A program made the position numbers and the translations under genes. The notes beneath the pieces were generated by a model. It was given only the letters and a program-made list of their open reading frames with translations. It made no database searches and was not told the origin of the DNA. A stretch of 63,935 nt of DNA, filler included, from Craspedostauros australis (taxonomy: Eukaryota): the NCBI GenBank assembly GCA_030167865.1. It is 8 parts of 8 records of this genome, joined end to end, with 100 filler letters (N's around TTAATTAATTAA, not from the genome) between each part and the next. Parts side by side here need not be neighbours in the genome. Positions count along the whole stretch, not along the records: positions 40,206 to 53,192 come from JALAGF010004065.1; 7 more parts are not named here. The stretch is one strand, 5' to 3'. Below are positions 9,394-56,200 of the stretch, one piece after another (the first letter of the stretch is position 1; each line of letters begins with the position of its first letter).

Positions 9394-9527
9394 CACTGCT
9401 TCTATTCTAGTTTCATTTGTAGTCTTATTCCGGCGCAGACAACGCTCCAACGGATGGTTCAGAATTGCATGGGAGACGAAGGAAGAGAGAGAGAGAGACA
9501 GGGATGCGAGAGAAAGTGCAAGTACTG

Positions 9528-10821: not shown

Positions 10822-11171
10822 TGTTGGCAAGTTCCGCTCACGGTAACCTACGATCGTGGAAGATGGTGTTGGTTGATAGTCGTCTGTTTGCTATTTCATT
10901 ACTTGGCTACTCCAATCCTCTCGGTGTACGCCGTTCTCTTGCCCGATGCTCTCGGCGCTTCAATCTGTTTCGTAGATTCAGTCTCCGACTATGAGTCGGC
11001 ATGCGAGATCCTCTCTCGCTCCTCTCTGTATTCTCTCTCTCTCTCTCTCAACATCGTGTGCTCATGCTACACGATACTCCGTGTTCAATGCGTGCTCCGC
11101 ATTCGACACTCCGTTCATTCAGTACTGGCTTCTACTCCATGAGTACTTACCATTTGAAGTTCACCTTCAGT
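10822..11171. mobile_element. Solo-LTR-like repeat, inverted copy truncated by the assembly linker
   Basis: Begins TGTTGGCAAGTTCC and is a diverged reverse complement of ~10010-10356. Confidence 0.6.
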
Positions 11172-11271
11172 NNNNNNNNNNNNNNNNNNNNNNNNNNNNN
11201 NNNNNNNNNNNNNNNTTAATTAATTAANNNNNNNNNNNNNNNNNNNNNNNNNNNNNNNNNNNNNNNNNNNN
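11172..11271. other. Artificial contig linker (also at 17873-17972, 32216-32315, 40106-40205, 53193-53292, 57185-57284, 61591-61690)
   Basis: Identical 100-nt N44-TTAATTAATTAA-N44 spacers carrying stop codons in all six frames. Confidence 0.98.
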
Positions 11272-12231: not shown

Positions 12232-12336
12232 AGAGGATACAAATTCTGTCTGTCTTGGATACAAGTACCAACACAACATTAGTTGAGGGAATTCACTAAA
12301 CAGGTCTTTTGGAGGCCAAAGTTCACTGACAAGTGC

Positions 12337-13133
12337 CAAGATGTACATGTGAGTATGTTGAGATGTACGTATATATGTGCATCGTTCACCCACTATTCTC
12401 TTATACGTACTTGGACGGTAAAACTACATTCGTGCCAATAGTATTCTGTGATTTGTCAAAATCACAGCGGAAATGGAACACATGAAAATGAGCAGAATTT
12501 CTGAAGGAAATTTGCAATCAACGATTTCTGAGAGAATTAGAACATCGTCTGTCCATCCATCAATGGAAACATATGGTATCGAGCGAAACTTGATGTACCT
12601 CCCAACTAAACCCCAGATGACAATATCATCTGACAGACCATCGCATTATCCATGGAACGTGACATCTGGAGAGCAGAAGGAAGCCTACTGGCATCGACAG
12701 GATGTCATCATGTCAACATGTCAACATCTGTCTCCATGTCAGAAGCAGAAGGTGAAGATCCAATGACCAAAGGGCATCAAGATCATGGATATGAGAGGTG
12801 AAGTTCAAATAGTAAGTACTCATGGATTAGGAACCAGAAATCAACAAACAGAGTGTCAAATGCAGCATACGCATTGAACGTGGAGTATTGTGTAGCTCAA
12901 GTACACGATATTGAGAGAGAGAGAATACGAGGAGCAGCAAGAGAGCATCTCGCGTACCAACTCATAGTCAGACAACCCAATCTATGAGACAGACAAACAC
13001 TCCAAGAGCATTGGGCAAGAGAACAGAGACACCAAGAGGATCGGAGTGCTCAACTACTGAAATAGCAAATGAACGACTATCAACAACACCGACTTCCACA
13101 ATTGTAGGCTTCCAATCATGGAACTTGCCAACA
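12337..13133. mobile_element. Solo-LTR-like repeat, copy 2 (more decayed)
   Basis: Direct diverged copy of ~9552-10356, ending in CCAACA at 13133, with many CG->TG/CA differences. Confidence 0.6.
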
Positions 13134-13364
13134 TGAGTGCTGGCTGAGTTGTGAGGGCTTGGCAACTGACGAAATGACCAAATGGTGCTCACATTTTCAG
13201 CTTGCTGTGCATGATCCTCACTGCAATCACTGTCACAACACAGCGATATCTCGCAAATTGAGCACAGTTCCAAACCACAACAGTACTTTTTCACAAGAGA
13301 ACGCACAACAAATGACTTGCCAACATGGCAACAAGGAGACAAATAAAACAAGAACCCATCAATT

Positions 13365-13889
13365 ATGTCAAGGAGAGAAGGTCGGATTGACTGGAAGGCC
13401 AGCAGAGCCAAAGCAATCATCTTTGATGACCTCCTCACTGGAGTGTTGCCAATGAAAGAAGAAGAAGAAGAGCTGTCTGTGGTAGAAGCATGGGAAGTGT
13501 GCTACTTTCACATGGCTGAGTTTGTGGACGTTGCTTTCAGCCAGTTTGAGGCTCATCTCCATGATCATTGCAAGCAGATGGGCAAGAAGCTGTGTCATTC
13601 GCTGATTGAATCTCATGCATCGGCGCATGACAGGGCCATTCATCCCAGAACAGATGTGGACTCTCGAGCCAAGAAAGTGTTTGACATCTCTGATGCAAAA
13701 ATGCGCCTTTGCCAAGACGTCAAAGATGGAAAGCACGAATCACTCACACCATCAGATCTTCAACAGACCTGCCCACAGTACGCTCAGTTCGGTAAGCGCA
13801 AGCTCAAGGAGCGGATCTACCAAGAGGTCCGGCACAATATATTCATTTATTGTCTTGAACTCAAGCGGGGAAAATCAATTCAGAAGTAG
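13365..13889 (+). pseudogene. Decayed ORF with duplicated helical module (W..S.AK..L..D....P), probably repeat/TE-associated
   Basis: Two similar units, IDWKASRAKAIIFDDL and FDISDAKMRLCQDV..PSDLQQTCPQYAQF..LKERIYQE. His/Cys occur where Arg would be expected (FEAHLHDHCKQ). Flanked by repeats. Confidence 0.45.
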
Positions 13890-14574
13890 TACACAGCTAA
13901 TAGTCAACGTAGCCATCTGCACACAATAACTTTGTTCCTTGCGATTCATCAATCCGCCCAGTTGTTTGACTCAGACGAGGCGTGGCGTCGCACAATTTGT
14001 CGTTGTCCAGATCTGTCCGTATATGTCCGGATGAGTCTGGATGTGTCCGAATTGGTTCCGTCTATCCGAATACGTTCAAATTTGTCCGTTAGTTTCAAAT
14101 TCTTCCAGAAATCGCCAAGGACAAACGAATCTGCAACTATTAAGAGCGAAACTCTGATAATGTCTTTTGTGTGTCCCGTAAGACTCACAAAGGATTTTTA
14201 ACAGAATTCTGGACAAATTGTTGGTTGTCCCAGAAGAATGAGCGATGACGCGAACGAATGGCTCGGAGCAACGTGTCGTGAGAGGTGTCTGACGAGTTGC
14301 CCTGCGATCCTGCGACTCTTTCCCTCCCAGGACTCCTGCCAATCTCATCATTCGTTCGTTCTTACCGGTATCGTCATCGCGATGAGCATGGTGAGGCGAT
14401 TTGTACTGGTATTGCCACGATGTCACACCAGTACTCCATCAGTGCTCCGCTCTGCTTCAATTCTTGGAGTACTCATACATGCATTGTGATCAGACCATCC
14501 TCACAGTCCATCGCCGTCGGAGAGCATCAACTCACACCAGAATCAAGCATTGGTAGTGAGTGTCAACAAACATC

Positions 14575-17500
14575 ATGAACTCCAACACGAACAATGCAGG
14601 ACAATCCAACAAGAGGAATGAGGATGATGGCAAGATGAGAGGACGAGCCCGTGGCGACCGCGCGGCGGCTGGTGGCAACAAGGCTCTTGGGAGCAAGAGG
14701 AGTGACGCCAACAAAGTCGGAAGGATGGACAAGTCAAATGAAGAAGACCTCATGATCGGAGCGGTCTCCGTAACACCTTCGTCTCAGATGTCCGACTTCG
14801 TCGCCGATGGAGCGATGTCTCACAACGGCGACGCGCAGTTCGTGGCGGCTGCACCAGGAGAGCACGTTGCTGGAAGAAAGGCGCGACGCTTGGATCGGAC
14901 CATCAACTCCAAACAGCGGCAAGCCAACCCGGGCACGGTCACACCCAGCACGCCTTCCATCGCGTACGCCGCAGCGTCTTCGGCAGGCATCAGCCAACGA
15001 GGCCAATCAAGCCAATTAGCGTCGCCCTCCAATGAATCCGGAATCGGCTCGCAATCTGCGATGGGGGTTGCGGGTGGCAGCGGTGAAATAGCACAGATAT
15101 CCTCTGAAAATCTATACCGCAAGAAAATTCAGAACGCGGCTCAAGGTGCTGCCGCAAGTGGCGCTCGTCTGAATTCGTTCCAAGCACCACCACGTCCATA
15201 TGACCAGTTCCGCAATGGACCACCCGACGACCGCGCTTCCCTCGCGGGCGGCATCGCGTCATCTGACGATCACATCGATCCGGGGTCAGCGAAATCTCTT
15301 CCGAAAGCGGTGCTGTTGGAAACAGATTCAGCCACGTTCGTCAACGACGATCGCACTGATGTCACCGATGCCGAACGACAACGCATTCGAGAACAAGCCG
15401 AGGAGAATGCCCGCAAGAAGATGGACGAAGCTGCAGTGCATGCCACAGCTGCTGAGGAGTACGTTAAAGACAAAGATACCTCCTCAAGCAACAAACGATC
15501 CAAATCGATCATGATCTGCATCGCCCTTCTCATCGTGGTCGGTGCCATCGTCGGCATTGCTGTTGGCGTCTCAGGCAACAGCTCCAAGTCTTCAAACTCC
15601 TCAAGCTCATCGTCGCCGGAGAATCCGACGAATGATGGTAGTGGTGGCGGTGAAATTGAAGCAACCGGAGCACCAGTTGCCGACCCGGTCGCAACAGTGC
15701 CACCAACTCCGATGGCAACCATGCCACCCACCTTCTCTCCACTCATCGACACCGATGCTCCATGCACATCCAACAACTTCTGCGAGTGTGCTCTGGAGAT
15801 CAACGAAACTCACATTGGCGAGTCCCTCTTCGGTAGCACAGTGGGTGCCACACCCGATGCGGTCAACACATGCGATGGCATCTCCAGAAATGGCGCTGGT
15901 GTGTGGTATCGCATGAGCAATCAACCCTTCATGGACAGCAACAGCAATCTAGATGTGGCCGCAGACACTCCAACCCAGCGCAGATTCCTGGCGTCGCTCT
16001 GCGAACGAGCTTCTGCTGCCGATGCCGAACCTGGGCAACCGTTTGTGCAGAGAACGAACTTCGACAGCCAGATCTCGATCTTCACTGGCGATCGATGTGA
16101 CCGATTGAAATGCGTTGCAGGCAATGACCAAGGCGGGCTCGGCTGTCTTGATAGGAGCCGCGCATCATTCGCCTTCAATAGACAAGGTGGTGCTGGTGTT
16201 GGTGCCGACGGTGGTGCCGACGGTGGTGGAGATGGTGATGAGACGTACTACATCTACGTTCATGGCTTTCGTTCTTCTCGTGGTGAATTCATGATGGAAC
16301 TTTCGGAGATACCCAACAATCTTCAATGTGAGGACGCCACCCGTGTATTTGCGGAATCATCAGTGGTTTCAACCACCAAAGGCGCAATCATCCAGCCTCC
16401 GGAGATCGGAGATTGCAGGAATAGTATTTCCTCCGCACCCGGAGTTTGGTTCCAAGTCGAGTTCGAAGATTTCCACGTTGAATGCGGTTTTGATTTCTAC
16501 TTCCGCACAAGTCCCATCACTGACGGGTTCATTCCACAAATGTCCGTGTTCAGGGGCGATGGCTGCAATGAGCTTCGATGCCTCGATGGAGACTCAGCAG
16601 AGGTCTTCGTCTTCCCAGAAGTTGGGGTAAAGTATCATGTCCTCGTACACGGCCTCGGCAATAGCGTCGGAGACTTCGTTTTCTCGGTCACATCGGATGA
16701 AGAAGAAGGCTCAGAAGTACCAGAGCTGGATCCTTTGGATTGCAGCTCATCGGTTGGATTGCCAGTGGGGTCCAGCGCAGAAAATACCCTGCTCAAGTTC
16801 GGCCCTGGAGTGGATCCAATCGTATCTTGCGCCAACAATGTCCTCGTCGACATCAGAGGCAATCCTTCGTATACGTACCGAGGAAACTGGTTCAACACGA
16901 CCGGGACCGGGACAATTCTGCGTGCCTCGACATGCAACACCGAGACGGCCTTCGACACCAAGATCAGTGTTCTGGTGGGGTCATGCGACGACCTCCAATG
17001 TGTCGATGCCAACGATGATGTCTCATCGCCTGCAGGCACGTCAGGTCGCAACGCTGAATCGTGCAGTGTTGTGGAATGGTACGCGCATGAGGGAGTGGAG
17101 TACAAGATCATCGGTACGTATTGTACAGTATGGTGCCCTTGCAAAGGGTGGTGTTTGTGGTCATCATCGTTGCATGTTTGCTGTACGTCTGTCCCTCTCG
17201 TTTGTTCCTCTCGTTGGGTCCTCTCGTTTGCACCAGGTCAAACATCGTGGCTTGAGCATCTGACTCGGATGCCCCTTCATGTTGAGAGTGCGGCACCAGT
17301 ACATCTTCGCCACACACTTCCTGCACACCACCCAACGCTCCGATGAACCCAACTCCTCACACTTGCAATTGCAATCGCTGAACAACGAATCTGTCATTTC
17401 GCATGATGCATTTCACATGATGCATTTCACATGATGCATTACACATTCTGCATTTCACATTCTGGTACCGTGCGAGTAGTGCATGGATCCGTGGATCGAC

Positions 17501-38060: not shown

Positions 38061-40105
38061 TCATACCATGGCGACTTTGGCCGTGGCACTTCGCTTTGTC
38101 TGTTCTTGCTGTTTTTGTTCGCCAGCATCACCGCCAGCAGGAATCACCCCTTCCGCATCATCGAGCATGCCCTCCTCACCTTCGTCGTCGTCGTCATCAT
38201 CATCATGATCGTCGTCGCCATCATGGTCGCCGTTTTTCAGCGCGCAGCTCGTGCCCGTTTGCTTGTTCTGAACAATCGCCATCGCGATACTTTGCGATTC
38301 CGGATTGTCGTCCTCACCCACGATGTAACCGGTCTCCGTGTACTGGTCGAACAGGCGCCCCATGAAGCGCGCATTCCAAATCAAGAAGCTGGCGACGCAG
38401 ATGCCCACCAGGCTGCCGTTCTCCACGAGGACCTTGGCGGAGTACGAGAAGGCGTTCGTGACGACGCTGCCCAGGGCCTTGCTGCCTCTGGCGCCGAATA
38501 TGTCGATCCACGATTTGGCCTTGTACCGCACGGCCGGGCTGGTGGGTTGGTACAGGATTTCCTTCGTGGGATTGTTGAGCGCGTAGCTGCAGGCCTTGAG
38601 CATGATCATGGCCGCGAAGACGACTTGCAACGTTGGTCGTAACCGCACGCAGATGATGACGATGAGGCACAGCGATGGGAAGAGGAGCAGGGTGGTGCGC
38701 AGGCCGAGATACCGAATGACCGCGGACGTTCCCAGGAGGCTGAAGAGGAAGCTGAGGCTGTTGGTGGCGACGCCGAACAATCCCATGAAGGACGCGATGG
38801 CGTTGGTGGCCTCCTTGGTGAGACCGAATTCGCCCGTCTCGGCGTCGTAGCACGGATCGGACATGTCGCACGGGTACTCGGTGGAGAAGAATTCCTTGGC
38901 CAGGACCTTGAGCATGAAGTCGATGATGGTGACCTCCACCATGAAGAGGCAGCTGATGGCGAAGATACCCTTGACGTAATTGTGCTTGTAGAAGAGGACG
39001 AGGCCCTCCAGGATGCCTGCCTTTTGCTTCTTCGCGGGTTTGCTGCCGGCCGGCGATCCCGCCGCTTGCTCCTCCTTCTCCTGCCTCTGCTCGGCGGAGC
39101 CGTAGTTCTGGATGTAGTTGTACATGCTGGCCTGCAGCAGCAGCATGCACATGGCACCCAGCATGTAGCAGTTGGCCGGTCCCCAGACCTCTGCATAGCG
39201 ATTGACGATGGCCGGTCCGATGATGGATCCTATCTGCGCCGTCGCCACCATGACGCCGTAGCTGGCCTTGGCGGTCTCCAGGGAAATATTGGAGTTGGCG
39301 AAGGACCAGAAGAGGCTGACCATGACGCTTCCGAAGCTCTCGATGGAGCAGTAGCTGATCCAACCCAGCAGCCTGGCCTCCGACTGGATCTGGTTGTCAA
39401 TGCCGATGGTGGGGTGCCTGAGCAAGAGAGCGATGACCGTGAAGAGGCAGAAGTAGAAGGATCCGAAGATGTAGAAGAGCTGATGCTTGGGCAGGCTGCT
39501 GTCGAGGAGGTGATTGTAGATGGAAACGACGCCCAGCACGACGAAGACGGAGAGCATCTTCGCCTTGGGGATGGCCTGGACGCCACACAGCGTCATGAGC
39601 ACGGTGTCCTTGAGCGAACGCAGCAACCAGTAGCCACCGATCATGAAGAAGAGCGTCATTGCCAGCGTGAGCGTTCGGATCATCTCCGACGGCGGCAACT
39701 TGTCACCGTATAGACGCTTGTAGATTTTCAGCAGCTTTCGCTCGCCGGATCCCATCAGCCGATCGAACCGCGATCCCCTGAGCTCATCCAGCGGAACGTC
39801 CAGCACTTCATCGTCCTTGTCGTGAACATTTTTGGGCAATACGTCGAGGTGGCTGTAGATGTCGCCTCCCTTGCTCACTTTGCCCGTGAGGTTGGCGGCT
39901 CCTTCATCACCGAATCCCTCCGCATCGGTATGTTCAGGCGGAGCATTGGCCGATTCCAGGGCCATCGTCGTCCACTGCTTGTCGGAGCTGCCGCCTTCAT
40001 TTTCGCTTTGCGGACGCAGGGAGTCGGACATCCTCTTTGCCTCAGGGGAACTCATGGGGTACGGATCCCTCCGCTCCAATGGCGACGGTGATTGCGATGA
40101 TGATG
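38061..40105 (-). CDS. TLC/NTT-family nucleotide (ATP/ADP-type) transporter; frame open into the linker
   Basis: [32 protein letters not shown] and [16 protein letters not shown] motifs; ~12 TM; acidic C-tail. First visible ATG is at 40055. Confidence 0.9.
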
Positions 40106-40205: not shown

Positions 40206-40612
40206 CTCACACACTCTCACACACTCTCACACACTCTCTCTCTCACACACACACTAACCCTCGCACTCAAACACACACTCAAACACACACACACACTAAC
40301 CCTCGCACTCAGACACACCCTCGCACTCAGACACACACTCACACTCACACTCAGACACACACTCACACTCACACTCACACTCAGACACACACTCAGACAC
40401 ACACTCAGACACACACTCAGACACACACAGTCACAGCGAACAACACACAACGACTGTACACACACTACACAACACAGACTACACACTCACACAGTCACAG
40501 CGAACAACACACAACGACTGTACACACACTACACAACACAGACTACACACTCACATTCACAACGCACAACGAACGATGTACAGACCAATGACTGTACACA
40601 CACACACACACA
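40206..40612 (+). repeat. CA-rich degenerate tandem repeats (CACTCAGACACA-like, CTAACCCTCG, 64-bp duplication)
   Basis: Directly visible. The 64-bp period runs between 40428 and 40492. Confidence 0.85.
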
Positions 40613-40894
40613 ACCAAACGGACGAAGGGCAGACCAATTATCCACAATCCAGTACACTACGGACGACGTACGGACGGTAATGTACACCATATCGCCATTT
40701 CCCGCAACTCCCAAATGTACCACCAAATGCCCATGTCCCACACCTCCCAAAATACCCCTAATCAACACCAAAATAGTGACAAACTTCAACACCCCGCAGC
40801 TCGCTCAATATCCACCTGTTGACAAAATCGAGCGTCCCTACAACCGCCCAAGACCCCCCTCCACACCACCAACAACAAAAGAACCAAAAATATC

Positions 40895-41012
40895 AACCTT
40901 GACTTTCAGAGGTTCCGGCTTTTATAAACCCTAACTTAAAAAACTGAGCCCTTGACTTTCAGGGGTTCAGGTTTCTGTGAAGCCTAAACCCTAACCCTAA
41001 TTAGCCCTAACT
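40895..41012 (+). repeat. Short direct repeat plus cluster of CCCTAA telomere-like hexamers
   Basis: CCTTGACTTTCAG.GGTTC occurs twice, followed by AAACCCTAACCCTAATTAGCCCTAA. Confidence 0.7.
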
Positions 41013-41534
41013 TTGAACTTTTCGATCGCTGTCATAGTGTCCACACGAGAAACCAATGAAACCCTAATGCACGAGGAAATAACACTGTGACGTAGGACGG
41101 CCAGACCAATGTTTGGGTTGGTTGACGGTCGACGTACAGACGTATGTATGGGCACACAATAAGGTACGTACGACGTACAGAAGTTAATGTGTGGAAAATG
41201 ATCCGCAACTCCCAGACAACACGACATACTACGAGCCAAGCGGTACATCGTGTTAAACATGTTCACCATGCTACACCATGATGATCACATTTCCACGCAC
41301 ATCCACTTGTACACACACACGTCAACACGTCCATACACACAAGTCAACACTTCTATCACCTTCAACGGACCTCTACAACGTGCAATATCAATGATCAACG
41401 TAACAATGACAAGAACCCAAAAAACCCAAACCAACGATAACACTAACAAAAACCAAATCCAAATCCAAAATCTCTGACACCAGTACAGATTCTATGGAAT
41501 CCTCAAATAGGACGAGAACAGCAGCAAACCGACC

Positions 41535-43957
41535 ATGACGTCAAAAAACGGCACAAGTTTGAAGCAACATCCCAACGATAAGGAGCACTCTACGAACCAA
41601 AGCATGGCATCAGGAACAGCAGGGGGACCCAAACCACCTCCAGAGCCAGATCCGAAGGTTGTGGAGGCAGAACTGATGGAGAAACAGAACAGAATAGCCA
41701 TCCAGTGGCATGAACCGGAGACATCACGATGGAAAAGCTCCCAAAGCGGGTGGCAGAGAACGCCAAGGCAATCAAAGCGACCGACGTCTACGACGAGGGT
41801 CCATCCTCCCTGCACGACAGAGCCAAACGGATGTACATCCAGAAAGCGGAGTGGGAAGGGAAGGACATGGCCAAAGCGTTGGCACACATGCCAAGCACGC
41901 AGGAACTCGCAGAATTTTTCCAGAAGGTGATGGACGGGCAAACGAACAAATTCGGCACACACCGAGTGGCTCAGGACGCTCCCCAACGGGTGAAAATCAA
42001 GCAATTGGTTGCGGACCTCTCCAAAACAGACCCGGCCGAATGCTTCAAGATGGAGCTGCACGCAGATGGCAAGTCCATGACGCGAAACCAAATGACACTG
42101 GCATGGGCGGCAGCGGTACAATACATGGGATGCCAATTCTCAGATGTCGTAATGGCACAGGAAGCATCTTCGGACAGCGACGACGACATGGACGGAATCC
42201 AACTGGAGTCGATACTGGTCAAACGAACAAGGCAGACAGCGCTCACGCAACACGTGGTCAAGACACCCCCAAAACACAAAGTGAGAGTGATAGCGCCAGA
42301 TGACACGTCCAACACCGAAGTACCAGAAGACAAGGATCCCACCAATAAGGAACCATGGGTCCGCGTGAGAGCCTCCTCTGTCCAAATGATGGCAACCCCC
42401 AAAAGGAAGTTCAATGAACGATTCGACCTCCGGCTGACCATTCCAAAGAACTCATCCACACCAATCCGAGACTTCCAATCCAGATTCGAACTATGGTTCG
42501 ACCATGCTCTGACCATTGAACCAAAGTTGGTCATATACCCATGGTACAAACGCCACAAGTCTGCAGGCACTATCTCAGACAGCGAGCCAATCCCCACGAA
42601 CTGGGACGAACTCAAGAAGTTTGTGTGCCGAGCGAAACCCAACCCAAAAGAGACAGACGTCTACATGCAACTAGAACTGGGAGGCGGCCAGAACCTGAAT
42701 GCACTCACAAGCCAACGAGCGGAAATGGAGGGCAGATACGCAACAGGAGAATACGCGTACGTCAGGGACCTAAAGGACGCGGAGAACATCACCGACGTAG
42801 GCTTCCTAGCATACTCAGGAAATTTCACCAACGCAAAGCAGACCATCGGAGTGATCAACAAACTCCTGGAGAAAATCCAGCCCAAGCTGGAGGTAGGAGG
42901 AAGGACCAAATTCCTAGGACAGGTGTCGGACGAAGCAAGAGATGAACACAAAAAGAATGGAGGCACATGGATAAACACTCCGTGGGTGGCCTTACATCTC
43001 CATGCGAACACCATGCAAGCCTGGAAAGTAGCGAAAGCTCTGGGCAAGGTGTTCAACACAAAAGGGGCCGACCGAGGAGGGTTGAACTACAGGTTCGTAC
43101 CAAACCCAGGAACAGCCACCATCGGCGCCGACACCGCGACGAAGCTCAGAAAGATGACACGAAAGCACCAACGCTATGTCAAGCAGCTCAAACGGTTCAG
43201 ACTGGACGGAGACGTAATGCTGGACACCAAAGACGAGCGCACAGGGACAACCACCCTGTGGGAGTTCCTCAGTACACAACAAACGCCGGAAGAAAACCCG
43301 TTTATCCACAATGTCAGCACCACACACATGATAGGCAGAGACGAAGACGCATTGAGCATCGTAGCATTCGACGACCGCTATGACCAAGCCAAGAATGTCC
43401 TCAACTCCATCGCCATCCGATGCAGAACGGAGATCAACGAGTCTACAGACGTCTGGTTTGATGACAACATCCTGGAGATGAGTGCGGGGTACGCCAAGGA
43501 CGCCACAGGGAAAGGATACGAAGATGTGGAGTTCGAAGGAGAATTGGACTTCATCATGGACGAAGAGATGGGAGAAGTGGAGATAGAAGGGATGGAAGAG
43601 ATCCAAGATGACTTGCCAACAGGATCCCCAGTGGGCAAAAAGCCCCGGCTAGAGGACGAATCCTACCAAACATTCTGCTCGGAATGCGGGAAGTCACGAG
43701 CATCCACCATCTACAGTGTCGTGGAATCCGTTGATGACAGGGAGGGAGTGAAGCAAGATGAGTTGTCAACAGTCATGAGGCAGGCACGCAAAGCACAACA
43801 AGCCGAGGTCAACAGAAAGAAGCTGGAGAAGCAATGACAAGAGCTCATTGAGAAAGACCGCATCATCGAGGAGTTAAGGGCAAAGCATGCAGAAGCAGAG
43901 CCCAACCACTCCGGGATCCCCAGCTCAAGCACGGCAGGGGGCCAATCTCAAGATTAA
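41535..43957 (+). pseudogene. Retrotransposon ORF1 (frameshift ~41715, premature TGA 43835-43837)
   Basis: 702-aa ORF 41729-43837. An upstream part lies in another frame, and a coiled-coil-like read-through continues to TAA 43957. Confidence 0.7.
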
Positions 43958-44042
43958 CGACAGGCTGGAGGGCGGGGAAGCATCAACACCCACCACCACA
44001 AGCATAACGGATGCACCTGGGGAGAAAGTGTGTCGGAATTAG

Positions 44043-47000
44043 CACGACCTCCAGGTCTCCTACTGGGGTGACAACCCTCGCGACAAAGGGCGCCAAGCAA
44101 TACGAATAGGGGCCCTCAACATGGGTTGTCTTCCGGAAGAGACTGGTCACTGGAAGAACCGCGACACATGGGAGTGGACAAAGATAATGCAGCTCGACAT
44201 GATACCGTTCTCCGAAATCGGGTTGAACTGGTCCAAGGTAGCCAAAACGCCACTCGCGGCATGCGCGAGTCAAGGGACAGTTCAACTCGTGGCGCCAAAC
44301 CATGGCACACAACAAACAAGAGAAGATGGGGCCCATATGGCAATGGGGAGGAACAGGATTCCTGCTCGTCAACAATGCAGCAGGACGGCACAAAACCTCA
44401 GAGGACGACCCAAGGAAGCTGGGGAGGTGGTCCAACATGACGCTCTGGGGGCGAGACGACAAAGCTGTACGAGTCGTAAGTGTCTACATCCCCACAAAGT
44501 CAGGGAAAGGGCCGCGCACAGTCGCAAACCAACAGGCAGCATGGCTGGAATCCCAGGGAATCACGACCCCGCCAATCACGGTGCTTCTGGAAGACCTCGC
44601 GGTCGAGATACAAAAATGTCACAGTCAAGGGGAAACGGTAATCCTCGGCGGCGACATCAACATGAAGGTGACGAACTCGCAAATGGCGACAATGTTGCAC
44701 AGGCAAGGACTAAAAGAAGCAGTACTCAGCAAACATCCACAAACAGCTCCAGTCTCCACCCACATACGCGCAGAGACTGACAGAGTCATCGACAGCATCT
44801 GGGTCTCTGATTCGGTGGTGATCCAGCAAGCAGGATACAGCAAGTTCGGGAGCTGGGATCACCGCACGGCATGGATAGAAATATCCGGCGAGTCAATTTT
44901 TGGAGCCCACAGCAGACCAACGAAAAAGTTCGAGGGCAGGCGCTTACAGACCAACAAACTGGCCACACTGCTCAGATACCAAAAGCAGTGGAATCAGGAT
45001 ACAACACAACAAAGCCAGGCTTCCACAACGAGCGGCGACCGTGCTAAAAGAAGTATGATGCAAACCAGACCAAACAGACGCACTCATCGAGGAGATCAAA
45101 AGCATTGACAGGGCACGAGCAGAGATCATGCTACAAGCAGAGAAAGGATCCCGACGAGTATTCGCAGGGCGAGTGCCGTACTCACCAACAATAAAAACAG
45201 CAGCCATGAAGAAGAAATTATGGGAGATCGCGTGGAAAAGAAGGCAAGGAGCAAGGGTCAGCGCACAGTGGTACGATCGCGTTAAGAAGCAACCAGGCAT
45301 ACGACAACCGACAGCGCACCTCACCCAGGCAGAAATCCAGCAAAGACGCAAAGTGGCGCACGAACACTGGAAACAGGTAAAGCGCGAAGCCTTTGAGCAC
45401 CGACGCACGTTCCTGGAACACCGAGCAGACGAGATGGCCGAAGCCGGCAACACCTGCGCAAGCACTGCGCTGGCAGTACTCATAGCAAGGGAGGAGACCG
45501 CCAAAACGTTTCGCTCCATCAAGCGTGCGATCCAGGGAGACTCCAGTGGAAGCAAAGTCACAATGGTCATAGCCACCGACAGAGCAGGAGAATAACAGAC
45601 GTACAGCAAGGAACAAGATGTCATCGCCCAATGCATGAAAGCCAACGAGCACAAATACAGACAGGCATACATGACGCCGCTGCAAACAGACAGCTTCAAG
45701 AGGAGCCTGGCGCAAGGCGGGATCGACCACGCCGCGAGACGACACAGGAGCTCCATGGACCAGCACACTCAGGCTCTTCTCGAGCAGCTGCAGTCCGCCA
45801 GTCTAGCGCCATTATGGGACGAACATCGATTGGAAATACCGGTAAAGGAGCACCAGCAGGCTTGGGCACGAGCCCGAGAGCGTACGGCTTCAGGGCCCTC
45901 AGGATTGCACTTCGGAACATGAAAAGCGAACGCGAAAGTCCTCGAGGTAGCCGCCACCGACGCAGCCATGCACGAGATATCCCTACGAACTGGATACGAC
46001 CTGAAGAGATGGCTCCAATGCTCAGATATCACCCTACTGAAGGAGGAAGGCAACTTCAGAGTCGACCAATTCCGAACCATCAGTTTGGTCGAAGGTGACT
46101 TCAACGCCAACCTGAAGAAGATCGGAAGGGAGATGATGAGCCACGTCGAAGCCAACAGTCTGCTCCCAGAGGAACAATACGGCAGTCGCAAGCAACGGAG
46201 CGCCGCCGAAGTAAGTCTGAACAACCAGCTGACCATCAACATCATCAGAAGCACAGGGCGAACGAGTTTTGTCTGCTCCAACAACGCGAAGAGCTGCTAC
46301 AATCGAATGGCACATGTGCCCCTTCACCTGAGCATGCGCGGAATCGGAGTGCCACCAACGGTGGGAGCGAGTGTGATAGCTGCAGTGGAAGCAATGAGGC
46401 ATCACGTACTCCCAGGGTACGGGCTATCAAGGGACACCTACCCCAAAAAGGGGCCCAAGCTCCAAGGTCTACTTCAGAGACTCGGGATATCGCCAGCAGG
46501 ATGGGTAGCCATGAGCTTGCCCTTGATGAAGACCATGGCAGATAAAGGCTATGGGTTTTCCACGGAGCACCCAGTGACAAACGAGGCCACAAAACTGGTC
46601 TGCTTCTCATTTGTAGATGACACAGACATCATACACACAATCCAAGAGGACGCAGCCAACGCGGAAGCATGCATGGCAGAGATACAGCAAGTGGTGGAAA
46701 CGTGGGAGGGTATGCTCTGAGCCACAGGCGGGGCTCTCGAACCACGGAAAAGCCACTGGTATCTCCTGGCATTCAAATGGAACAGCACGGAATGGATACA
46801 CTGCAGCGAAGAGGAGATCCTGGGCAGCATCAGCATCCGACAGCCAGACAGCGCGGAACGATCAACGCTGCTACGACTGCCCGTCGACCAAGCAAGAAAG
46901 GCTCTTGGAGTAATGGTGCGTCATGACGGGGTGCAGCAGGACAACGCGGAAATGTACACGCAGAAAGCTTGGAAATGGGCCGACGCAATAAGATGAGGCG

Positions 47001-49606
47001 GGCTGCTCCGAGGACAGGCAAAGGTAGCTCTACACGCTACCATCATGAAAACCTTGGAGTACCCCCTAGCAAGCGCGACGTTTACGAAGGAAGAGTCCGA
47101 ACGGATTATGCGCTCCATGCTACAATCGGCGCTCCCTGCGACGGGAGTCCAACAGAACGTATCGCGAGCGCTGGTCTTTGGTCCGCGAAGACGATTTGGA
47201 TTGGGAACACCACACATATATCATACGCAAGTCACACGGAACGTCGAGGAAATCACCAAGCATTGAACCAGAGCACGATCACAGGGAAACTGATGCGCAA
47301 CGTCATGGGCACCCTGGAGCTGCAGGCTGGCATGGATCAAGTATTCACCAGGATGCTGAGCCAATGGCAAGGAGCGCTGCCAGACTCTTGGATGAAGGCA
47401 GTATGGGCCGAACTCAACCACGTTGAGGTCACCCTTCGGTTCGAAACATCACCACTGACGCCGCCAAGGGAAGGGGACTCGTTCATCATGGAATGCATAC
47501 TCTCCCTCAACCTGTCCAAGGCGGAGCTCCATGCAGTCAACCTGTGCCGATTGGCGAAACAGGTACTGTGGGTTTCCGACATTGCGAATGTGCAAGGGGA
47601 CGAAGTACTAACGGCCTCCACCTCTCCAGGACTAACGCCTCTCCGGAAAAGCAGCATATGATGGCCGCGCGTCGGAGAACCATCGCCACGGCAGTGGAAG
47701 GAATGGTCACAGGTTATTGGCCGATGCTTCCCGTCCACCAGAGGGCCATCCAGAACGATATCCCCACCTCTCGGAGAGTGGCAAAACTACAGCTCTGAAA
47801 ACCCCCAGTACATGTACGATCTGGGCGCAGACAGAATCACACCCATAGACCAGGCGGGAGTGTACTATAGACGGGTCCCGCGCAGGGGATGCAGGAGGGA
47901 GTACACACAAACCGTCGGCACCGCTACCCAGGGCACGCAGCCTGTGGATGGATACACCAGCGGGTCGAGCTTGGCAGTCGCAGGACACTCTCCAGGCATA
48001 GTCGCCCAGCCGCCACCGCCAATTCGGGACCTCGCAGCAACATTCCAGCATCTCTCGGACTCGTCAGCGTGGGCGATCGAGGCATGGGACATCGTGGGAG
48101 ACGAGAAAGTGCTTGGAGACGCCATCAGGAATGGAACACTCACCGCATGCAGCGACATTTCGGTAGCTGATGGGCGAGGAGCAGCAGGAGCAGTGATCAC
48201 AGGCGAGACCCACAACCAAATGGCCAAGCTGTGGTTAACCTGCAGGACCCCACGCAGCAGCGACACAATGCAGTCCTACAGGGCGGAGCTATCAGGTCTG
48301 TACAGCCTTATGGTGACGATCCAATGCATATGCGACTCCCAGGGAGTTATGTCAGGACGAGCGGTCGTCGGGTGCGGCAACATCGGCGCGCTCAAGGCGC
48401 TGGATGTTACTTGGCACTTGACGCCCAGGTCCTCCGATGCTGACCTAATGCGGGTCACCCGCAACAAAATGCTGCAGCTATCGATCAGCATTGAGGGAAG
48501 GCATGTGAAGGGGCACCAAGATGACGGCAAGCAGTGGCACGAGCTCGACGACTGGGCAAGAATGAACGTGGAAGCCGACAGGTTGGCTGGGGCCCAGAGA
48601 AGAGTCAGCGGCGACACCATACCCTATGACGGCATCATCGAAGGCGAGGAAGTATACTTTTTCAGGTGTATGAAGATAACCTCGGTGTGTTATGAACACA
48701 TAGCCGAGGAAGGTCTGACCAAAGCAATATTCGAGGTACTGCGAAACAGGAAAGTGGTGGACCGGGCAGAAGAATTCAGTTGGCCGGCAGTGGGAAGGGC
48801 CATCACAGGCCTCGATCACACCAGCGCAATGCTGACGTTCAAATTGGTCACCGGAGAAGCGGCAGTGGGGAAAAGGATGAAGCAGTGGGGGCTCCGGACG
48901 TCCAGCCAGTGCCCCAGCTGCAAGGCAGAGGAAGTCCAGGCGCACATCTGGTCCTGCCCCGCCGAGCACAGGGCGGAAGCGACCGCCAAGCACCTGCAGG
49001 ATATCCGCATGTGGATGGCGAAATATCCAACGAGCCCACAGGTCACTGCAGCCATAACAGCCATGCTGAGAAGCCAGCTGGCAGGGACAGTACATCTTCA
49101 GGCGGCACCTGCGAGCAGTGCGCTGACCGAGGCGATAGAGCAGCAGCGGCGAATCGGGAACGTGTCTCTTTCCCGTGGGCTGATTGGCACAAAGTGGGTG
49201 GAACTGCAAGCGGTGTTTCTGGCGAGCCAAGGATCGCAACGATCGCCCCTAACATGGGGGGGCGGAGCTGGCCCGAAGCATATGGCGAATAGCGTGGGAG
49301 CAATGGCGGCTTCGAAACCATGACATGTTCAATGAAGCCGAGTCAGGTGAGCAGGAGATGATGGAGGCCATGCGAGACAGGTTGGAAGACCTGGCAAGCA
49401 TGCTCCAAGCCGACAACGCCATCCACCAGCGAGTGTTGGCAGCACGTCCAGGACGCGAGTCTGATGCTGCAAGCGTGGCACTGTGGATGGAGCGGCCGGC
49501 GAGACTGCTACGCGCCAACCTGGCGACAGGCCTGCTACTCAAGTGGATGCAAGTCCACTCGAAGACGGGATTCCAACTACGCCGCAAGGACGAGCCCAAC
49601 AAGTGA
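44043..49606 (+). pseudogene. Retrotransposon ORF2: AP endonuclease, reverse transcriptase, RNase H, Cys/His knuckle; many stops and frameshifts
   Basis: APE: IRIGALN, SEIGLNW, VVSVYIP, ILGGDIN, IDSIWVS, DHRTAW. RT: RERTASGPSGLHFG, FRTISLVEGDFN, PEEQYGSRK, SNNAKSCYNR, FVDDTD. RNase H: ACSD, SYRAELSG, HVKGHQD, NVEADRLA. Knuckle: CPSC..HIWSC. Confidence 0.9.
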
Positions 49607-49771
49607 GAACAAGAACAATACATGCACGAAGGTGCTTAGCACCAAACCTTCAGATTCCGTACCCTCTCCAGGTGTCCCACCTGGAGTTGAAAGAAGGCGG
49701 AGAAAAGCGTCGCCGACGCAGTCGAAGCATAGGACCGACTAATCTATGAGTTATTTATTAATTCATTTATT

Positions 49772-51050
49772 CCTATACCCCACCCCCAACCGACCAACTA
49801 ACTTTGGCATGCATTGCCAAAACTAACCCTTGATACAAATTCATCACCCATTTACCCTTGATACAAATTCATCACACATTAACCCTTCATACAAGTTCAT
49901 CACACATTAACCCTTGGTACAAATTCATCACACATTAACCCTTGGTACAAGTTCATCACACATTAACCCTTGGTACAAATTCATCACACATTAACCCTTG
50001 GTACAAATTCATCACACATTAAGCCTTGATACAAGTTCATAAAGCCCCAACACCCTAACCCTTGTCATCACTCACCATACAACACACATTGGCCAAAATC
50101 TATTCCTATACCCCACCCCCAACCACGCAACTAACTGCTGCAAGTATTGCCCAAACTAACCCTTGATACAAATTCATCACATACTAGCCCTTGATACAAA
50201 TTCATCACACATTAACCCTTGATACAAATTAATCACACATTAACACACATTGGCCAGTCTCTATTCCTATATCCCACCCCCAACCACGCAACTAACTCCT
50301 AAAAGTATTGCCCAACCTAACCCTTGATACAAATTCATCGCACATTAACACCCTAACAAGTTCATCAGCCATTCACCCTTGCCACAAGTTCATAAAGCAC
50401 CAACACCCTAACCCTTGTCATCACTCACCATACAACACATATTGGCCAATATCTATTCCTATACCCCACCCCCAACCACGCAACTAACTCCTGCAAGTAT
50501 TGCCCAAACTAACCCTTGATACAAGTTCATCACACATTAACCCTTGCTACAAGTTCATCACACATTAACCCTTGCTACAAGTTCATCACACATTAACCCT
50601 TGCTACAAGTTCATCACACATTAACCCTTGCCATCACTCACAGCACAACACACATTGGCCAATATCTATTACTATTCCTATACCCCACCCCCAACCACCC
50701 AACTAACTCCTGAAAGTATTGCCCAACCTAACCCTTGATACAAGTTCATCACACATTAACCCTTGATACAAGTTCATCACACATTAACCCTTGATACAAG
50801 TTCATCACACATTAACCCTTGATACAAGTTCATCACACATTAACTCTTGCCATCACTCACCATACAACACATATTGGCTGGTTTCTATTCCTATACCCCA
50901 CCCCCAACCAACCAACTAACTTTGGCATGTATTGCCCAAACTAACCCTTGATACAAATTCATCACACCCTAACCCTCGATACAAATTCGTAACACCCTAG
51001 CACCCTAGCACCCTAACCCTTGCCACAACTCACACCCTAACACCCCAACA
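49772..51050 (+). repeat. Higher-order satellite: 28-bp unit TTAACCCTTGATACAA[A/G]TTCATCACACA with a CCTATACCCCACCCCCAACC head, six blocks
   Basis: Heads at 49772, 50105, 50266, 50458, 50677 and 50890, each followed by about 2-8 28-mers. Confidence 0.93.
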
Positions 51051-51699
51051 TGCAGTGAACAGCTATTACCATCAGTCACCACACAAAAGCAAACACTGTC
51101 CAATATCCATCTCAGACACTCACACACACACACATCTCACACACCCAAAATGCAATGTACAGCAATTGCCATAACTCGCCACACAACACACACTTGCAGT
51201 CCCTCTCTCTCTCTCTCTCTCAACACCTCTGATCACCGTAGTCACACATCCAACAACTCCAGGAGATTTCCCACACCACGCATGACATGGCAGGAGCGTG
51301 GCACATATGGCTGTCAACTCCATGATGCTCGTTGCTACCGCCACACTCAAAGACTGATCATGATATGCCTTCCTTCCTGCCCATCCTGCTGTGGTGAATC
51401 CATACTGCAGTGGTGCTGACAACAGTGGCGTTGTCATCAACAATCACAGCCGCAGCAACGGTTCCAACAATGCCAACAACACAGGCAATTGTGGTGCCAC
51501 CAACCAGACCACTGATGCTGATACTGCTGCTCCCCCAGCAGCTCACGCCCCCCTCCTCCACCCGTCCCTGAGGCAGCTGCGGTGCCAACAGCCGCTCTTG
51601 TTCCCACTGACTATGTGGAGGTCCCTCCTGCACCTGAGGGATCCAATCCTGCTCGATCCAAGGCTGCCACCACTGCCAGAGCCTCTCCGTTGCCATGAC

Positions 51700-51963
51700 G
51701 GGCCTGTGCTCGCTCCTGACAACATTGTGACTCCTGGCAAGGGCACAGATCTCCCTGGCTATGCCGCACCTCCTGCAGATGTCAAGCTGGATCAGGTGTA
51801 CGGCGACCATGCCCACAACAACAACAACAATGACGGCTCCCACCTCCATGGTGGTGTTGGCAGAGATGCTGTGTGGCAGCAGTGCTGGGCTCGCATCGTC
51901 ATTGCGTTCTCCCCACAACAATACTTGGTCCCACATTGTTGCATTGGCCACAGATTCCTTCAC

Positions 51964-52000
<37 letters not shown>

Positions 52001-53192
52001 AGCTCAGGGGGGTTCGCAACCGGCTGTGGAACTCGGAGCAACCGCTGTTGCCTGTGGCAGTGACCCTCCAGACCACCCCTGGTGTGCCTGGTCGCAGCAA
52101 AGTACGGAAGCGGCTGCCCTCTTGCATGGATTTGTGAGAGACCAGCAAGTTTGCCGCACTGGTTGAGGCCACGGAGTCAGAGCTGCGCCAGCATGCCATT
52201 CCATCTGGTGGCACCTGCGACAATGTGCCACATGCCCGCGCCTTCAACTCAAAGGTTCTCTCTGGTTGTCTGCATATGCTGCGGTTCGCACCTTCACACA
52301 CATCTTGTGAAGGTAGTGATCTCCTCTTGCCAGCAGAAATCGACACCAAGTCTGCTCTGCCCATGGAGGAGGCACTGAGACTCGGGCATCCTGTCATGTC
52401 ATACGTGATTCTGACATCAGTGGCGACGGGACAAGAGCATTCGAGCCATATGACAGTCCTGCTCCCACCCCTGTCCCTGTCAAGATCACTGCAGAGGTGG
52501 TTGGATCAGTTGCTTCCAAACTCTCTGGGGAGGCTGGTCCGGTCAGGGCGGTCTTGATGCTGTCCATCTGGGAAACTGGTGCCTGCGGTTTTGGCAGCAA
52601 GTCCAAGCATCTCCGCGAGGAGGTTGCTGCTTGGACCAACTGGCTCTCCAACTCCCATCCTCCATGGGCTGCCTACTGCGCCATGATGGCGTGCCACCTC
52701 ATTGCTCTGGACAAGCGTCCAGGTGTGCGTCCTCTCGGCATTGGCGAAGTGTTCTGTCGTGTCATGGCGAAATGCGTCCTTGCTTCCATTGGTCGTCGTG
52801 CCACTGCTGCCTGCAACAACCTGAACCTGTGTGCCAGCTTGCCAGCAGGCATCGGGAGTGCCATCCACACGGTGCAACATGCGTTCCACGACGGCGACGA
52901 CGGCCCAAGCAACGATGCCGCGCTCGCCAGTGGCAGTGACAGCACCGAATCTGGCGCCCCAGCTGCCTCTTCCAGCGAAGGCGATCATGCGATGAACACT
53001 GGCGGTGGCGACAACGGCGACGACGGTGACGACAGCCACCAGGCAGCCTCTACCCCATGGGGCATGCTGCTCGTCGATGCTCGCAACAGAGTTGACGATC
53101 TGAGCTGCAAGGCCATGCTCTGGACTGTTTGGCACTGCTGGGCAGGCGTGGCTCAAGGGGATCCTCTTTCAATGGTTCTCTAGGAGATTGCT
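51700..53192 (+). mobile_element. Degenerate CRE-clade (restriction-like endonuclease type) non-LTR retrotransposon, 3'-truncated by linker
   Basis: VYGDH..NDGSHLHGG..W, ELRGVRNRLWNSE, LIALDKRPGVRPLGIGE, LLVDARN, QGDPLSM. Contains frameshifts, stops and a (CT)n tract at 51967-51998. Confidence 0.82.
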
Positions 53193-53292: not shown

Positions 53293-56200
53293 CCTTTCGC
53301 TTCCCACTCCTTGCGATTCGCCGTCGCGTAGTTCAGGTACTCGTCCGACGCCACGCCAAACACGCCGCAATCCTTCAGCTTCTTGGCCAGCGGGATGATG
53401 TAATGATCGAAGAATCCAAGCTCGCCCGTGTACCAATTCTTGGCAGGATCGCGTCCTGCGCGGCCTTCCTTGTACGCCATGGCGCATTCCTCGAAGAAAC
53501 GCTCGTTCCATTTCAAGTACACGTGCCAATGCTGCATCGTATGCGACACGTCGGAGGCTTGGATCAGATGCTCGATCACGACGGTGGCCTTGCGGTTCAT
53601 GTCGTTGCGCGTCGTTTCGGAGACGTTGGTGTGGTTGGATGGATTCAGTGAGGACATGGACTTCGGGATGGTGATGGGTGATAGCAGGAGGTTGTCTTTG
53701 TTGTTGTCGGCCTTATTGGGGTTAGCGCTGTTGCCGTTGCCGTTGCCGTTGCCATGGACGTTGATGGTGTTGTGTTTGATTGGGCTTCGCAGATCCAGAT
53801 GCGGCACCTTCTGCAAGATGGTCTCGGTCATTTTGCCGGAAAAGTCGATGCTTGTCACCGACGATCTCACGCCGCCGGGCTTGACCGGAGATGGCGTTTT
53901 GAATTGCTTGCTGTGCTTCTTCAAGATCTTCTTCTTGGGCGGGACGGGCGTTGCCGGTGCCGAACCAGGGTGCTTGGGTTGGACATTGGCGAAGGCCGTC
54001 TCCCAGCGCTTCTTACGGAGCAAGCCGAGCTCCTTGTCCACGATGTCCGTGGCCATGACGGTGTTGACGATCAGCTGGCGGAAGCGGTTGAATTCTTCGC
54101 AATTACTGTAGATGCAAGCACGCAGGGCCTCGTACTGGGGCGCCATCAGCAAGTCCCAGCCAAGGTCGATCGAGTTCTGCTCGGCGACGCTCTGAAACTT
54201 GTAGCGCACGGCGTCGGGATCGCGTTCCTTGCACAGCTGTGCGTTGGGGACGCCAGGATGATCCACGTCATGGATCAAGGCCGAGAGGGCAACGGAGAAC
54301 TGCGTCAATGGATCGGATGTGATACCGTACGTGTACTGGTGCAACGTCTTCGTAGCGGTCTTCGTGTATGCCATCTTCTTGTAATCAATGGAGTCCGGCG
54401 TGACGACTCTGTGAATCAACTTGATCACAGATTGCGTCACGTGGCTGAGGTGTGCGGATGTTCATACAGTGCATGGTGGAACGATTTGAGCATTGCGGAC
54501 GGAGTGGAGCAGAAAAGGGCAACGTAGCACAAAACGATTCGTCGATCAAGCAGGCATGACAAGAGTGAGATGTACGGGCATGAGTGGAGTTGCCACAAGA
54601 TTGAACAGTCATCACTGCCGCCATCTGTGCCGTTGCCATCTCCAAGACCTGAACAAAACAATAACACAAAACGACCATACGTATAGCATAGCATGATGCC
54701 AATACTCACCTGGCATGCTCAAAGCAATGGAAGCTGTTGTCGCGGTACATGTAGCAGATCCTCGACACGAAGTCTCGCAACTCCGCCACGACGGCATCAT
54801 CCAGGTGGACGGACTGTGGGTCGGTGCCGTACTTCGCTGGCTTGTTGGGGAGTTCGATAATCTCCTGAACCTCGTCGAGGATGCTGTACTTGATGGAATC
54901 GTGATGTTCCTTCTCCAGGTCCCGAAGCTCTGCCTGCTGCTGGACTGTGGCTTGCAGCGACGTGGTGCTATTGTTGGAATGGCCACGTCGCATGGCCACG
55001 ATCTTCTGGAGCAACTCACGCAGCACGTCGACGTTCCAATCGATCAAGCGTTCTCGTCTGTCGATGACACTCTCCCGAAGAAACTCGGGCATCTCTGCAG
55101 ACTCGCTGCTGCTGTCATCGTCGTCATCCGTACTCGTACTTCGATTCGCTTGTGAGCCGTACGACGAGCGAGTTGTTGAGACTGCGTCGACGCTGTCACC
55201 GAAGCTGCTGAGGCTTCCGTTGGAGGAGCTTGGTTTCATCGAAAGTGTTTTCTGTTGAAGTGGAGCTGGCGCACTGCCATCATCTATTGGCTGCGTCAGC
55301 GGCTCATGTTCCGATACACCTCCCAATCCGCTGAGGCGGCGTTGAGGGAACTTTCGTTTTTGGATTTGCGGTGTGCCTCCAACAGTGCTGGACGTCGCAG
55401 ACCCCGTGCTCAGTGACCCGTACGCCAACCAGAACGTCTCCATCTGCCCCTTGCCCTTGACATCGATTGGCTCGTTGCGTGGCATAATCCATATGTTCTG
55501 AGTTTTCTCGGATGCCTCCATGGATGCGGTAATGCTGGTTGCGGCGGACGCGGAGAGGTGAATCTTGTGCTTCTTGCCGGTGGACTCCATCCGCGCCGCC
55601 GTGTTGACTGTGTCACCGAAGAGCTGGAATCTGGACTTCTCTCCACGCAGGACGCCCGCAGTGACTGGGCCAGAGTTGATGCCAACGCGCATGCCCAGCT
55701 CGACTGTGTCAGGACCGAGCGACACCTCAAGGCGCCTGAGGACGCTGGACATCTTCGCCAAGCAATCGCGTGCGAACTTGGCCATGATGAGAGCATGGTG
55801 CTCCTGCTGTTCGGGAAGGCCAGTTGCGGCTACATAGCAGTCACCGATGGTCTACTCGTACGTGTGATAAAGAGTGAGTGAGTGAGCGAGGCAGCATCAG
55901 TAGGCATTTACGAGTGGCAGGAACGTGGAATTGAAAACAGTTTGTGATGAGTGGGAGAATGAGCAAGGTTCCTGGGTGATCACTGGGCATAGCAATCAGA
56001 GCCCAGCTCAATTTTACACTTGCACAATGGTACAATAGTGCGCACTTGCACACTGCTCATCCATCGTCGCGTGATGGGATACCAGCTTGGTATCATACCA
56101 TATGTAACCGTACTCACCTCCACCTTGAAGACGCCACGCTTCCTTGCCAGCTTATCGAAGGCGTTGTAAATGCCCTCCAACAGAATGAACACCTGCGTCG

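Follow-up and report, generated by a model that had tools for sequence, protein, structure and literature searches.

Contig C4065 (JALAGF010004065.1) of the diatom Craspedostauros australis was found to be a piece of subtelomeric repeat DNA that carries two non-long-terminal-repeat retroelements, an Ambal-like long interspersed nuclear element (LINE) and a CRE-like element. The contig comprises 12,987 bases and occupies positions 40206-53192, flanked by N-linkers, of a stretch of 63,935 nucleotides that was analysed as a whole (hereafter, the window). In a first-pass annotation C4065 had been described as a telomere-associated retroelement array; the subtelomeric setting was confirmed, but the elements did not prove to be telomere-targeting units. 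C4065 probably represents the inner part of a telomerase-capped subtelomere whose blocks are common to several chromosome ends and in which both retroelements are passengers. On this assessment the subtelomere is of an ordinary kind, capped by telomerase and serving as a sink for transposons, and no retrotransposon-based telomere system was revealed.

Telomere motifs, subtelomeric blocks and telomerase

The C-rich motifs described in the first-pass annotation were borne out. TAACCCT was found on the + strand at 40255 and 40297, CCCTAA on the same strand within 40929-41062, and a further 23 copies of TAACCCT on + in 49771-51364; neither TTAGGG nor AGGGTTA occurs anywhere inside C4065. When compared with 100 dinucleotide shuffles, the 6 copies of CCCTAA in 40206-41402 stood against a mean of 0.22 (maximum 2), and the 23 copies of TAACCCT in 49771-51364 against a mean of 0.29 (maximum 3); in the bodies of the LINE and the CRE-like element, counts of telomere-like motifs were at chance level. 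No true telomere run in the window exceeds (CCCTAA)2, at 40989, and the TAACCCT of the satellite belongs to a 28-bp unit (TAACCCTTG...), itself part of a longer higher-order repeat, and forms no hexamer array. The telomere unit agrees with AACCCT, which the sections consulted of PMC9266582 give for Phaeodactylum. A Pfam scan of 12 frames of C4065 found no host gene, as had been proposed for this contig of 13 kb; it returned weak matches to endonuclease, reverse transcriptase (RT) and zf-RVT, below the cut-off, plus one weak match to NttA.

The location of C4065 was assessed by searching the C. australis assembly (65.9 Mb, 6,734 contigs), which is fragmented, holds only 10 terminal arrays and has collapsed repeats, so that counts from genome searches are lower bounds. 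Searching with (CCCTAA)4 gave 85 matches on 11 contigs (control, 0), at the contig end in 10 and internal in one (C2044). All 10 terminal (CCCTAA)n arrays adjoin either the telomere-adjacent sequence (TAS; 8 arrays) or the 28-bp satellite (2 arrays, directly behind the array in C2731 and C5172), in the window's orientation, and the chromosome end therefore lies to the left of C4065, as had been predicted. The DNA directly behind the 8 arrays is 72-80% identical to window 40987-41402. Among 36 fetched contigs, every block match had the same sense (satellite 18, spacer 21, endA 16, TAS 22, endB 21); these contigs were oriented by their own C-rich motifs, which makes the orientation partly circular, but it is anchored by the 10 terminal contigs. 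Short internal CCCTAA tracts were found between blocks in C2044, C2708, C948 and C6079, and in the first three of these endA is followed by an internal (CCCTAA)3-5. Blocks homologous to 40206..40430 are preceded by further subtelomeric repeat in C2708, C4950, C6481, C1369 and C5878. Because sister contigs hold other blocks before it, the left end of C4065 is an internal point of a subtelomeric array.

A conserved block end with an imperfect hairpin was also observed directly before internal CCCTAA tracts in 9 contigs; together with the TAS it forms a unit of about 1.05 kb that is tandemly repeated in C1103, C1757 and C5458. These data yield a map of diatom subtelomere blocks, of which no description was found in the literature searched, which took in few subscription journals.

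The genome was also checked for TERT, as the first-pass annotation had suggested. One uninterrupted frame was found on C2945, of 1454 aa from stop to stop (1322 aa fetched), with Telomerase_RBD, RVT_1 and TERT_C above the Pfam cut-off and RT motifs visible; the frame carries long low-complexity insertions. Loss of telomerase was rejected on account of this frame, and replacement of telomerase by a retroelement, as with HeT-A/TART, was likewise not observed.

The two retroelements and their copies elsewhere

Both elements of C4065 are sense on the + (C-rich) strand with their 5′ ends towards the chromosome end, and both are dead, as had been reported. The LINE, 8.4 kb in length, has 3 stops in ORF1 (open reading frame 1) and 7 stops plus 4 frame changes in ORF2. 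Ambal elements have two ORFs, the second with an apurinic/apyrimidinic (AP) endonuclease, RT, RNase H and a zinc finger. The window LINE shows these features (with Pfam matches below cut-off), its RNase H resting on motifs and on PF00075 in 1 of the 120 relatives listed; no named relative was found among the 120 matches listed. Intact relatives were found in C1235 and C1236, with frames of 847 and 1894 aa, and C4588 is similar.

A tail pattern search recovered 34 LINE 3′ ends in the genome, all of which were examined. Among the 33 with flank, 31 lie outside subtelomeric blocks and 2 inside, namely the window copy and C5360. In a FastTree tree of 500 bases covering 29 of the 34 ends, these two copies fell in different subfamilies (sisters C4560/C4762/C6730 and C4754/C4837), and some of the dispersed sisters lie on contigs >56 kb. 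Target-site duplications of 14-16 nt pair the 5′ end with the 3′ flank in 6 of 10 LINE 5′ ends, C5360 included. The window LINE has none; it joins TAS straight to satellite, whereas in three sister contigs 0.7-1.8 kb of DNA, interrupted by N gaps in every case, lies in between, and 17 other TAS copies run on without a LINE. About 0.33% of the assembly is accounted for by the subtelomeric contigs that were fetched. With the window copy left out, 1 of 32 LINE ends is subtelomeric, a share that chance could produce (P 0.09-0.15 for 0.3-0.5% subtelomeric DNA). LINE copies are neither confined to chromosome ends nor inserted in telomere repeats, as TRAS, SART or HeT-A would be, and no join of the LINE to (CCCTAA)n was found at either end. 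The LINE family is dispersed, and any excess that it has in DNA without genes is mild; telomere priming of the LINE was rejected on its flanks and duplications. Antisense elements occur on telomere contigs as well: a distant LINE fragment (23% identity, E 2e-9) is antisense on C6248, and antisense also on C754, and a Copia element is antisense on C5667, another Copia being sense on C3383 and C3384. On a chimeric origin of the window LINE, identity to its subfamily sisters gave no clear answer, at 86-90% in the body compared with 91-96% and 93-94% at the 5′ and 3′ ends.

The CRE-like family was found on 10 contigs. Its sole intact copy (C4256 2696-6815, - strand) encodes a 1277-aa frame with RT and restriction-like endonuclease, in which QGDPLS and YADD are present. 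The C-terminal pattern was read as C-x2-C-x7-H-x3-C-x8-RHN...E...RGD...D, with spacing one residue short of the published pattern and RGD in place of R/KPD, and a regular expression for the published pattern missed it. The architecture (single ORF, RT, CCHC finger, restriction-like endonuclease) points to the CRE clade, a label drawn from motifs rather than from a tree. Among the 120 relatives listed there was no named CRE reference; 6 of the 7 organism-named ones were from Fragilaria crotonensis and the other from a Myxococcota metagenome-assembled genome, which would be consistent with a diatom source. The intact copy has (CA)n on both sides, and the 2,655 bases downstream of it hold no subtelomeric block. 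Three further matches of the CRE search, at E 6.6e-4, proved to be a helicase gene and were dropped.

The window copy of this element has frameshifts and stops, and about its first 500 bases are missing. Its 5′ junction is identical in C3383, C5260, C6373, C2731 and C5172 (6 contigs in all), and 12 empty spacer sites without the element were found. The window copy and C3640 have one deletion and one stop in common, and the 3′ end of the C3640 copy runs into a CA tract whose flank recurs in C11. Five subtelomeric copies are 92-94% alike and 83-85% identical to C4256, from which they differ jointly in 78 of 894 columns. A genome search for 3′ ends gave only three element ends, two with a common flank. 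Because of the common junctions, derived changes and flanks, two independent insertions are known, one of which has spread among chromosome ends. The subtelomeric copies are therefore one 5′-truncated insertion copied between ends, and many independent insertions at ends were rejected on the same junctions and derived changes. All of these copies are sense on the C strand with the 5′ end towards the terminus, an orientation that counts as one insertion, and the presence of the element on 4 of the 10 terminal contigs reflects one duplicated insertion. No join to (CCCTAA)n was found at either end of the element; its 3′ ends run into CA tracts and its 5′ ends into (CA)n or spacer. Random placement of other copies, which the first-pass annotation had named as evidence against its model, was found for the LINE and in part for the CRE-like element, with 1 of 2 independent insertions subtelomeric.

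Transitions were found at 85 of 326 CpG positions of the CRE-like element (26%) versus 51 of 777 non-CpG positions (7%), a pattern that suggests methylation of its copies. Of 11 metagenome relatives, 4 carry a terminal microsatellite (AGTC in two of them, CA and CTA in one each), and a CCCTAA array was found at the ends of none. Many metagenome relatives of the intact element occur on contigs that are, at about 4.1-4.4 kb, as long as the element itself. A second broken repeat is fused to the truncated CRE-like copy (C6373 oriented 7113-9544; also C5249, C4950, C3383 and C5260), and its frames, with an LDAFWSR motif, presumably resemble a recombinase-type retroelement.

The distribution of CA tracts was also determined. 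In 195 kb of subtelomeric contigs there were 121 (CA)5+ runs on the C strand and 4 (TG)5+ runs, compared with 2 runs in 188 kb of other DNA, a density about 60-fold higher in the subtelomeric contigs. Because of this density and strand bias, an element targeting (CA)n would often land here, and in the window's orientation, without telomere recognition. The place and orientation of the CRE-like element can be explained in this way.

The features of C4065 are collected in Table 1. The parts beside it in the window are separate contigs, and linkage of C4065 to the genes on them was rejected for that reason. One of these contigs carries a TLC ATP/ADP-transporter gene (PF03219; window 38061-40105, - strand), and the other a frame that we take, from its motif, to resemble a cyclic-nucleotide phosphodiesterase (window 53293-54461, - strand).

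Table 1. Features of contig C4065, in window coordinates
Feature	Position	Strand	Remarks
CA-rich minisatellite with TAACCCT interruptions; internal subtelomeric array block	40206..40430	+	TRF; homologous blocks elsewhere
Subtelomeric block endA, ending in a telomere-like junction	40431..40982	+	matches in 16 of 36 fetched contigs, all in C-strand orientation
Degenerate internal telomere remnant, (CCCTAA)2 and variants	40983..41011	+	terminal array at the equivalent position in 8 contigs
First part of TAS, interrupted by the LINE	41012..41402	+	72-80% identity behind 8 of 10 terminal arrays
Ambal-like LINE, full-length, dead; (TTTA)n tail; no target-site duplication	41403..49770	+	
LINE ORF1	about 41468-43955	+	
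LINE ORF2: AP endonuclease, RT, RNase H-like, zinc finger	about 43920-49606	+	
28-bp satellite (TAACCCTTG... unit) in a 161-219-bp higher-order repeat; subtelomeric	49771..51050	+	seen in 19 contigs
Start of CA-rich subtelomeric spacer/minisatellite block	51051..51364	+	12 copies run on past 51364 without the CRE-like element
CRE-like non-LTR element, 5′-truncated, decayed; contig ends before YADD motif and endonuclease	51365..53192	+	81% identical to the intact C4256 copy

Origin of the array and alternative explanations

In the account that we favor, the subtelomere is made of repeated non-coding blocks (TAS, 28-bp satellite and CA-rich minisatellites) with CCCTAA remnants between them. Chromosome ends would be maintained by TERT, and the internal remnants would be former ends extended by recombination. 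One LINE copy would have landed in this gene-free zone and then decayed; the missing duplication and the missing DNA between TAS and satellite may be due to sequence lost during insertion, or to two LINE copies having recombined afterwards. The CRE-like family would target (CA)n microsatellites by target-primed reverse transcription. Its single insertion into a subtelomeric CA tract would have been silenced, as the CpG decay suggests, and carried to several ends by inter-end recombination, with an orientation that follows because CA tracts lie almost only on the C-rich strand. The case shows how a single dead insertion, once copied from end to end, can give the impression of a family that targets telomeres, and it yields an intact, (CA)n-flanked CRE-like element together with an unnamed tyrosine-recombinase family.

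Several observations weigh against this account. A third LINE copy, C6145, is ambiguous, its flank matching repeats that are also present on subtelomeric contigs. If the window copy is counted, 2 of 33 subtelomeric LINE ends exceed the DNA share (P 0.004-0.012), the window copy having been ascertained, and both close-family copies inserted in subtelomeric blocks have the C strand as their sense strand (2/2). LINE junctions without target-site duplication could be misassembly. Of the 10 contigs with the CRE-like family, 9 belong with the subtelomeric lineage, and the known independent insertions number only two; the C4256 contig starts at the CA tract, which confines the view of its surroundings to the downstream side.

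One alternative is that the CRE-like family amounts to a specialist of subtelomeres, its (CA)n target being concentrated on the C strand of chromosome ends; such indirect targeting would give MoTeR-like placement and orientation without CCCTAA recognition. The density and strand bias of (CA)n described above agree with it, as do the one subtelomeric insertion of two and the fact that both known types of 3′ junction end in CA tracts. We nevertheless consider it unlikely, given that only two insertion events (three 3′ ends, two with a common flank) are available, that the intact copy has no subtelomeric block downstream, and that relatives end in other microsatellites (AGTC, CTA) or in none.

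Other alternatives involve a gene found elsewhere in these arrays. In the subtelomeric block upstream of the satellite, C5878 carries a 1,600-codon open frame (9850-14649, - strand) with a tyrosine-recombinase-like N-terminal part, followed by an acidic part and a proline/alanine-rich repetitive tail; nearly the same frame was found in C1369:1-3858, with pieces in C2731 and C828. An exact overlap of 2,102 bases makes C5878 contiguous with the telomere contig C3640. The N-terminal part gave an Atlas score of 0.97 to phage-integrase (PF00589) clusters and a weak Pfam match to PF00589 (E 0.033), and a PDB profile search gave no match, so the fold assignment rests on Atlas features and residues. 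R235, K264, H333, R336 and Y377 are present in the query, and 17 of the 18 proteins aligned keep R, K and Y; the catalytic R-H-R-Y set of Crypton-like elements was thus found. Such elements also have terminal direct repeats of 5-6 bp, TATGG in CryptonS. The representative library held 25 relatives. A genome search gave 29 matches, and 18 further contigs were fetched. Twelve of these have no TAS, satellite or telomere array and include copies 90% identical to C5878; the other six (C5636, C6310, C5596, C3013, C6337 and C1116) carry a 41%-identical, 5′-truncated subfamily directly behind TAS, with one common junction. In C6310 this second subfamily is followed by a MATH-BTB host gene, probably at the inner edge of the subtelomere. 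In C4886, C5212 and C299, which have no telomere motifs, the recombinase (90%) lies head-to-head with a 65%-identical paralogue, possibly within a larger unnamed element. The recombinase is most likely a Crypton-like passenger.

A composite history strikes us as quite improbable, in which a self-spreading subtelomeric unit, its own recombinase intact in C5878 and C1369, would build the arrays by integrating into CCCTAA tracts, and its CA-rich strand would attract a CRE-like element that targets microsatellites, oriented as in MoTeR; if true, this attraction would be a possible intermediate step towards true telomere targeting. We hold as very unlikely the simpler proposal that the non-coding blocks themselves form a mobile unit, TATE-like or Y′-like, which encodes the tyrosine recombinase and integrates into CCCTAA tracts, C4065 being a copy with the recombinase gene lost or replaced. 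The position of the long frame upstream of the satellite, its recombinase-like score and residues, the conserved junctions at which block ends adjoin CCCTAA, and the second subfamily behind TAS in 6 of 6 copies would fit such a unit; the twelve contigs without subtelomeric blocks, the single 5′-truncating junction of the TAS-linked copies, which indicates one captured copy, and the weak Pfam and absent PDB support speak against it. Finally, the earlier model, in which both elements target telomeres with priming from the G-rich strand in the manner of MoTeR or HeT-A/TART, has barely any credibility left and is largely refuted already for the LINE: the subtelomeric position, the 5′-distal orientation, which MoTeR and FoTeR have as well according to the part consulted of PMC12857005, and the CRE-like copies on terminal contigs agree with it, but neither element forms a junction with (CCCTAA)n, the LINE copies are scattered and have duplicated flanks, the CRE-like copies are one event, telomere contigs hold antisense elements, and the genome has both TERT and plain arrays.

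Comparison with known systems

In the portions consulted of PMC12857005, MoTeR is described as inserting in the telomere repeat, and FoTeRs as occurring only at chromosome ends, with telomeric motifs at their junctions; both are 5′-distal. The CRE-like element resembles MoTeR1, FoTeR and Cnl1 in its single ORF, its RT with C-terminal restriction-like endonuclease, and the 5′ end pointing to the terminus, but those elements insert in the telomere repeat, whereas the element here is (CA)n-flanked and its intact copy has no subtelomeric block downstream. Elements with a restriction-like endonuclease that are specific for microsatellites are known, as the part consulted of PMC4640811 records for Togen, (TG)n, and some HERO families. 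With these the CRE-like element has in common a dinucleotide-repeat target on both sides; they belong to a different clade by label, and the element here has CRE-like motifs and diatom relatives.

Ambal and CRE are listed as Repbase clades (PMC4455052, sections consulted), and LINE/Ambal is given as abundant in the diatom Pleurosigma (PMC12803021, likewise). The window LINE is, like Ambal LINEs, a long two-ORF dispersed diatom LINE, and the name Ambal here denotes resemblance. As had been stated in the first-pass annotation, no report that Ambal or CRE elements of diatoms target telomeres was found in the literature searched, with Repbase Reports mostly outside it; Repbase entries for Ambal and diatom CRE families may describe targets already. 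The part consulted of a survey of telomeric retroelements names no diatom (PMC10088271), and endonuclease-less Penelope-like elements are described at telomeres in several kingdoms in the part consulted of PMC8557442; PMC5348765 and PMC8147415 yielded nothing further.

CryptonS occurs in a diatom (PMC3212892, part consulted), and TATE inserts in Leishmania telomeres, in telomere hexamers (PMC6681497, part consulted). The recombinase found here is, like that of CryptonS, a tyrosine recombinase in a stramenopile; it differs from CryptonS and TATE in that no RT was observed in linkage with it and the majority of its copies lie outside subtelomeres. Drosophila HeT-A/TART have the same 5′-distal orientation but differ from C. 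australis, where TERT and plain (CCCTAA)n arrays were found, with no head-to-tail arrays of one element. One endonuclease-less Penelope-like telomeric element has reportedly been described from a diatom. The X/Y′ elements of yeast and the TAS of protists are subtelomeric duplicons with internal telomere tracts. The blocks of C. australis differ from them in having their own sequence and no helicase gene that was found; they resemble them in lying in one orientation across several ends, in their internal telomere remnants and in the transposon debris that they have accumulated.

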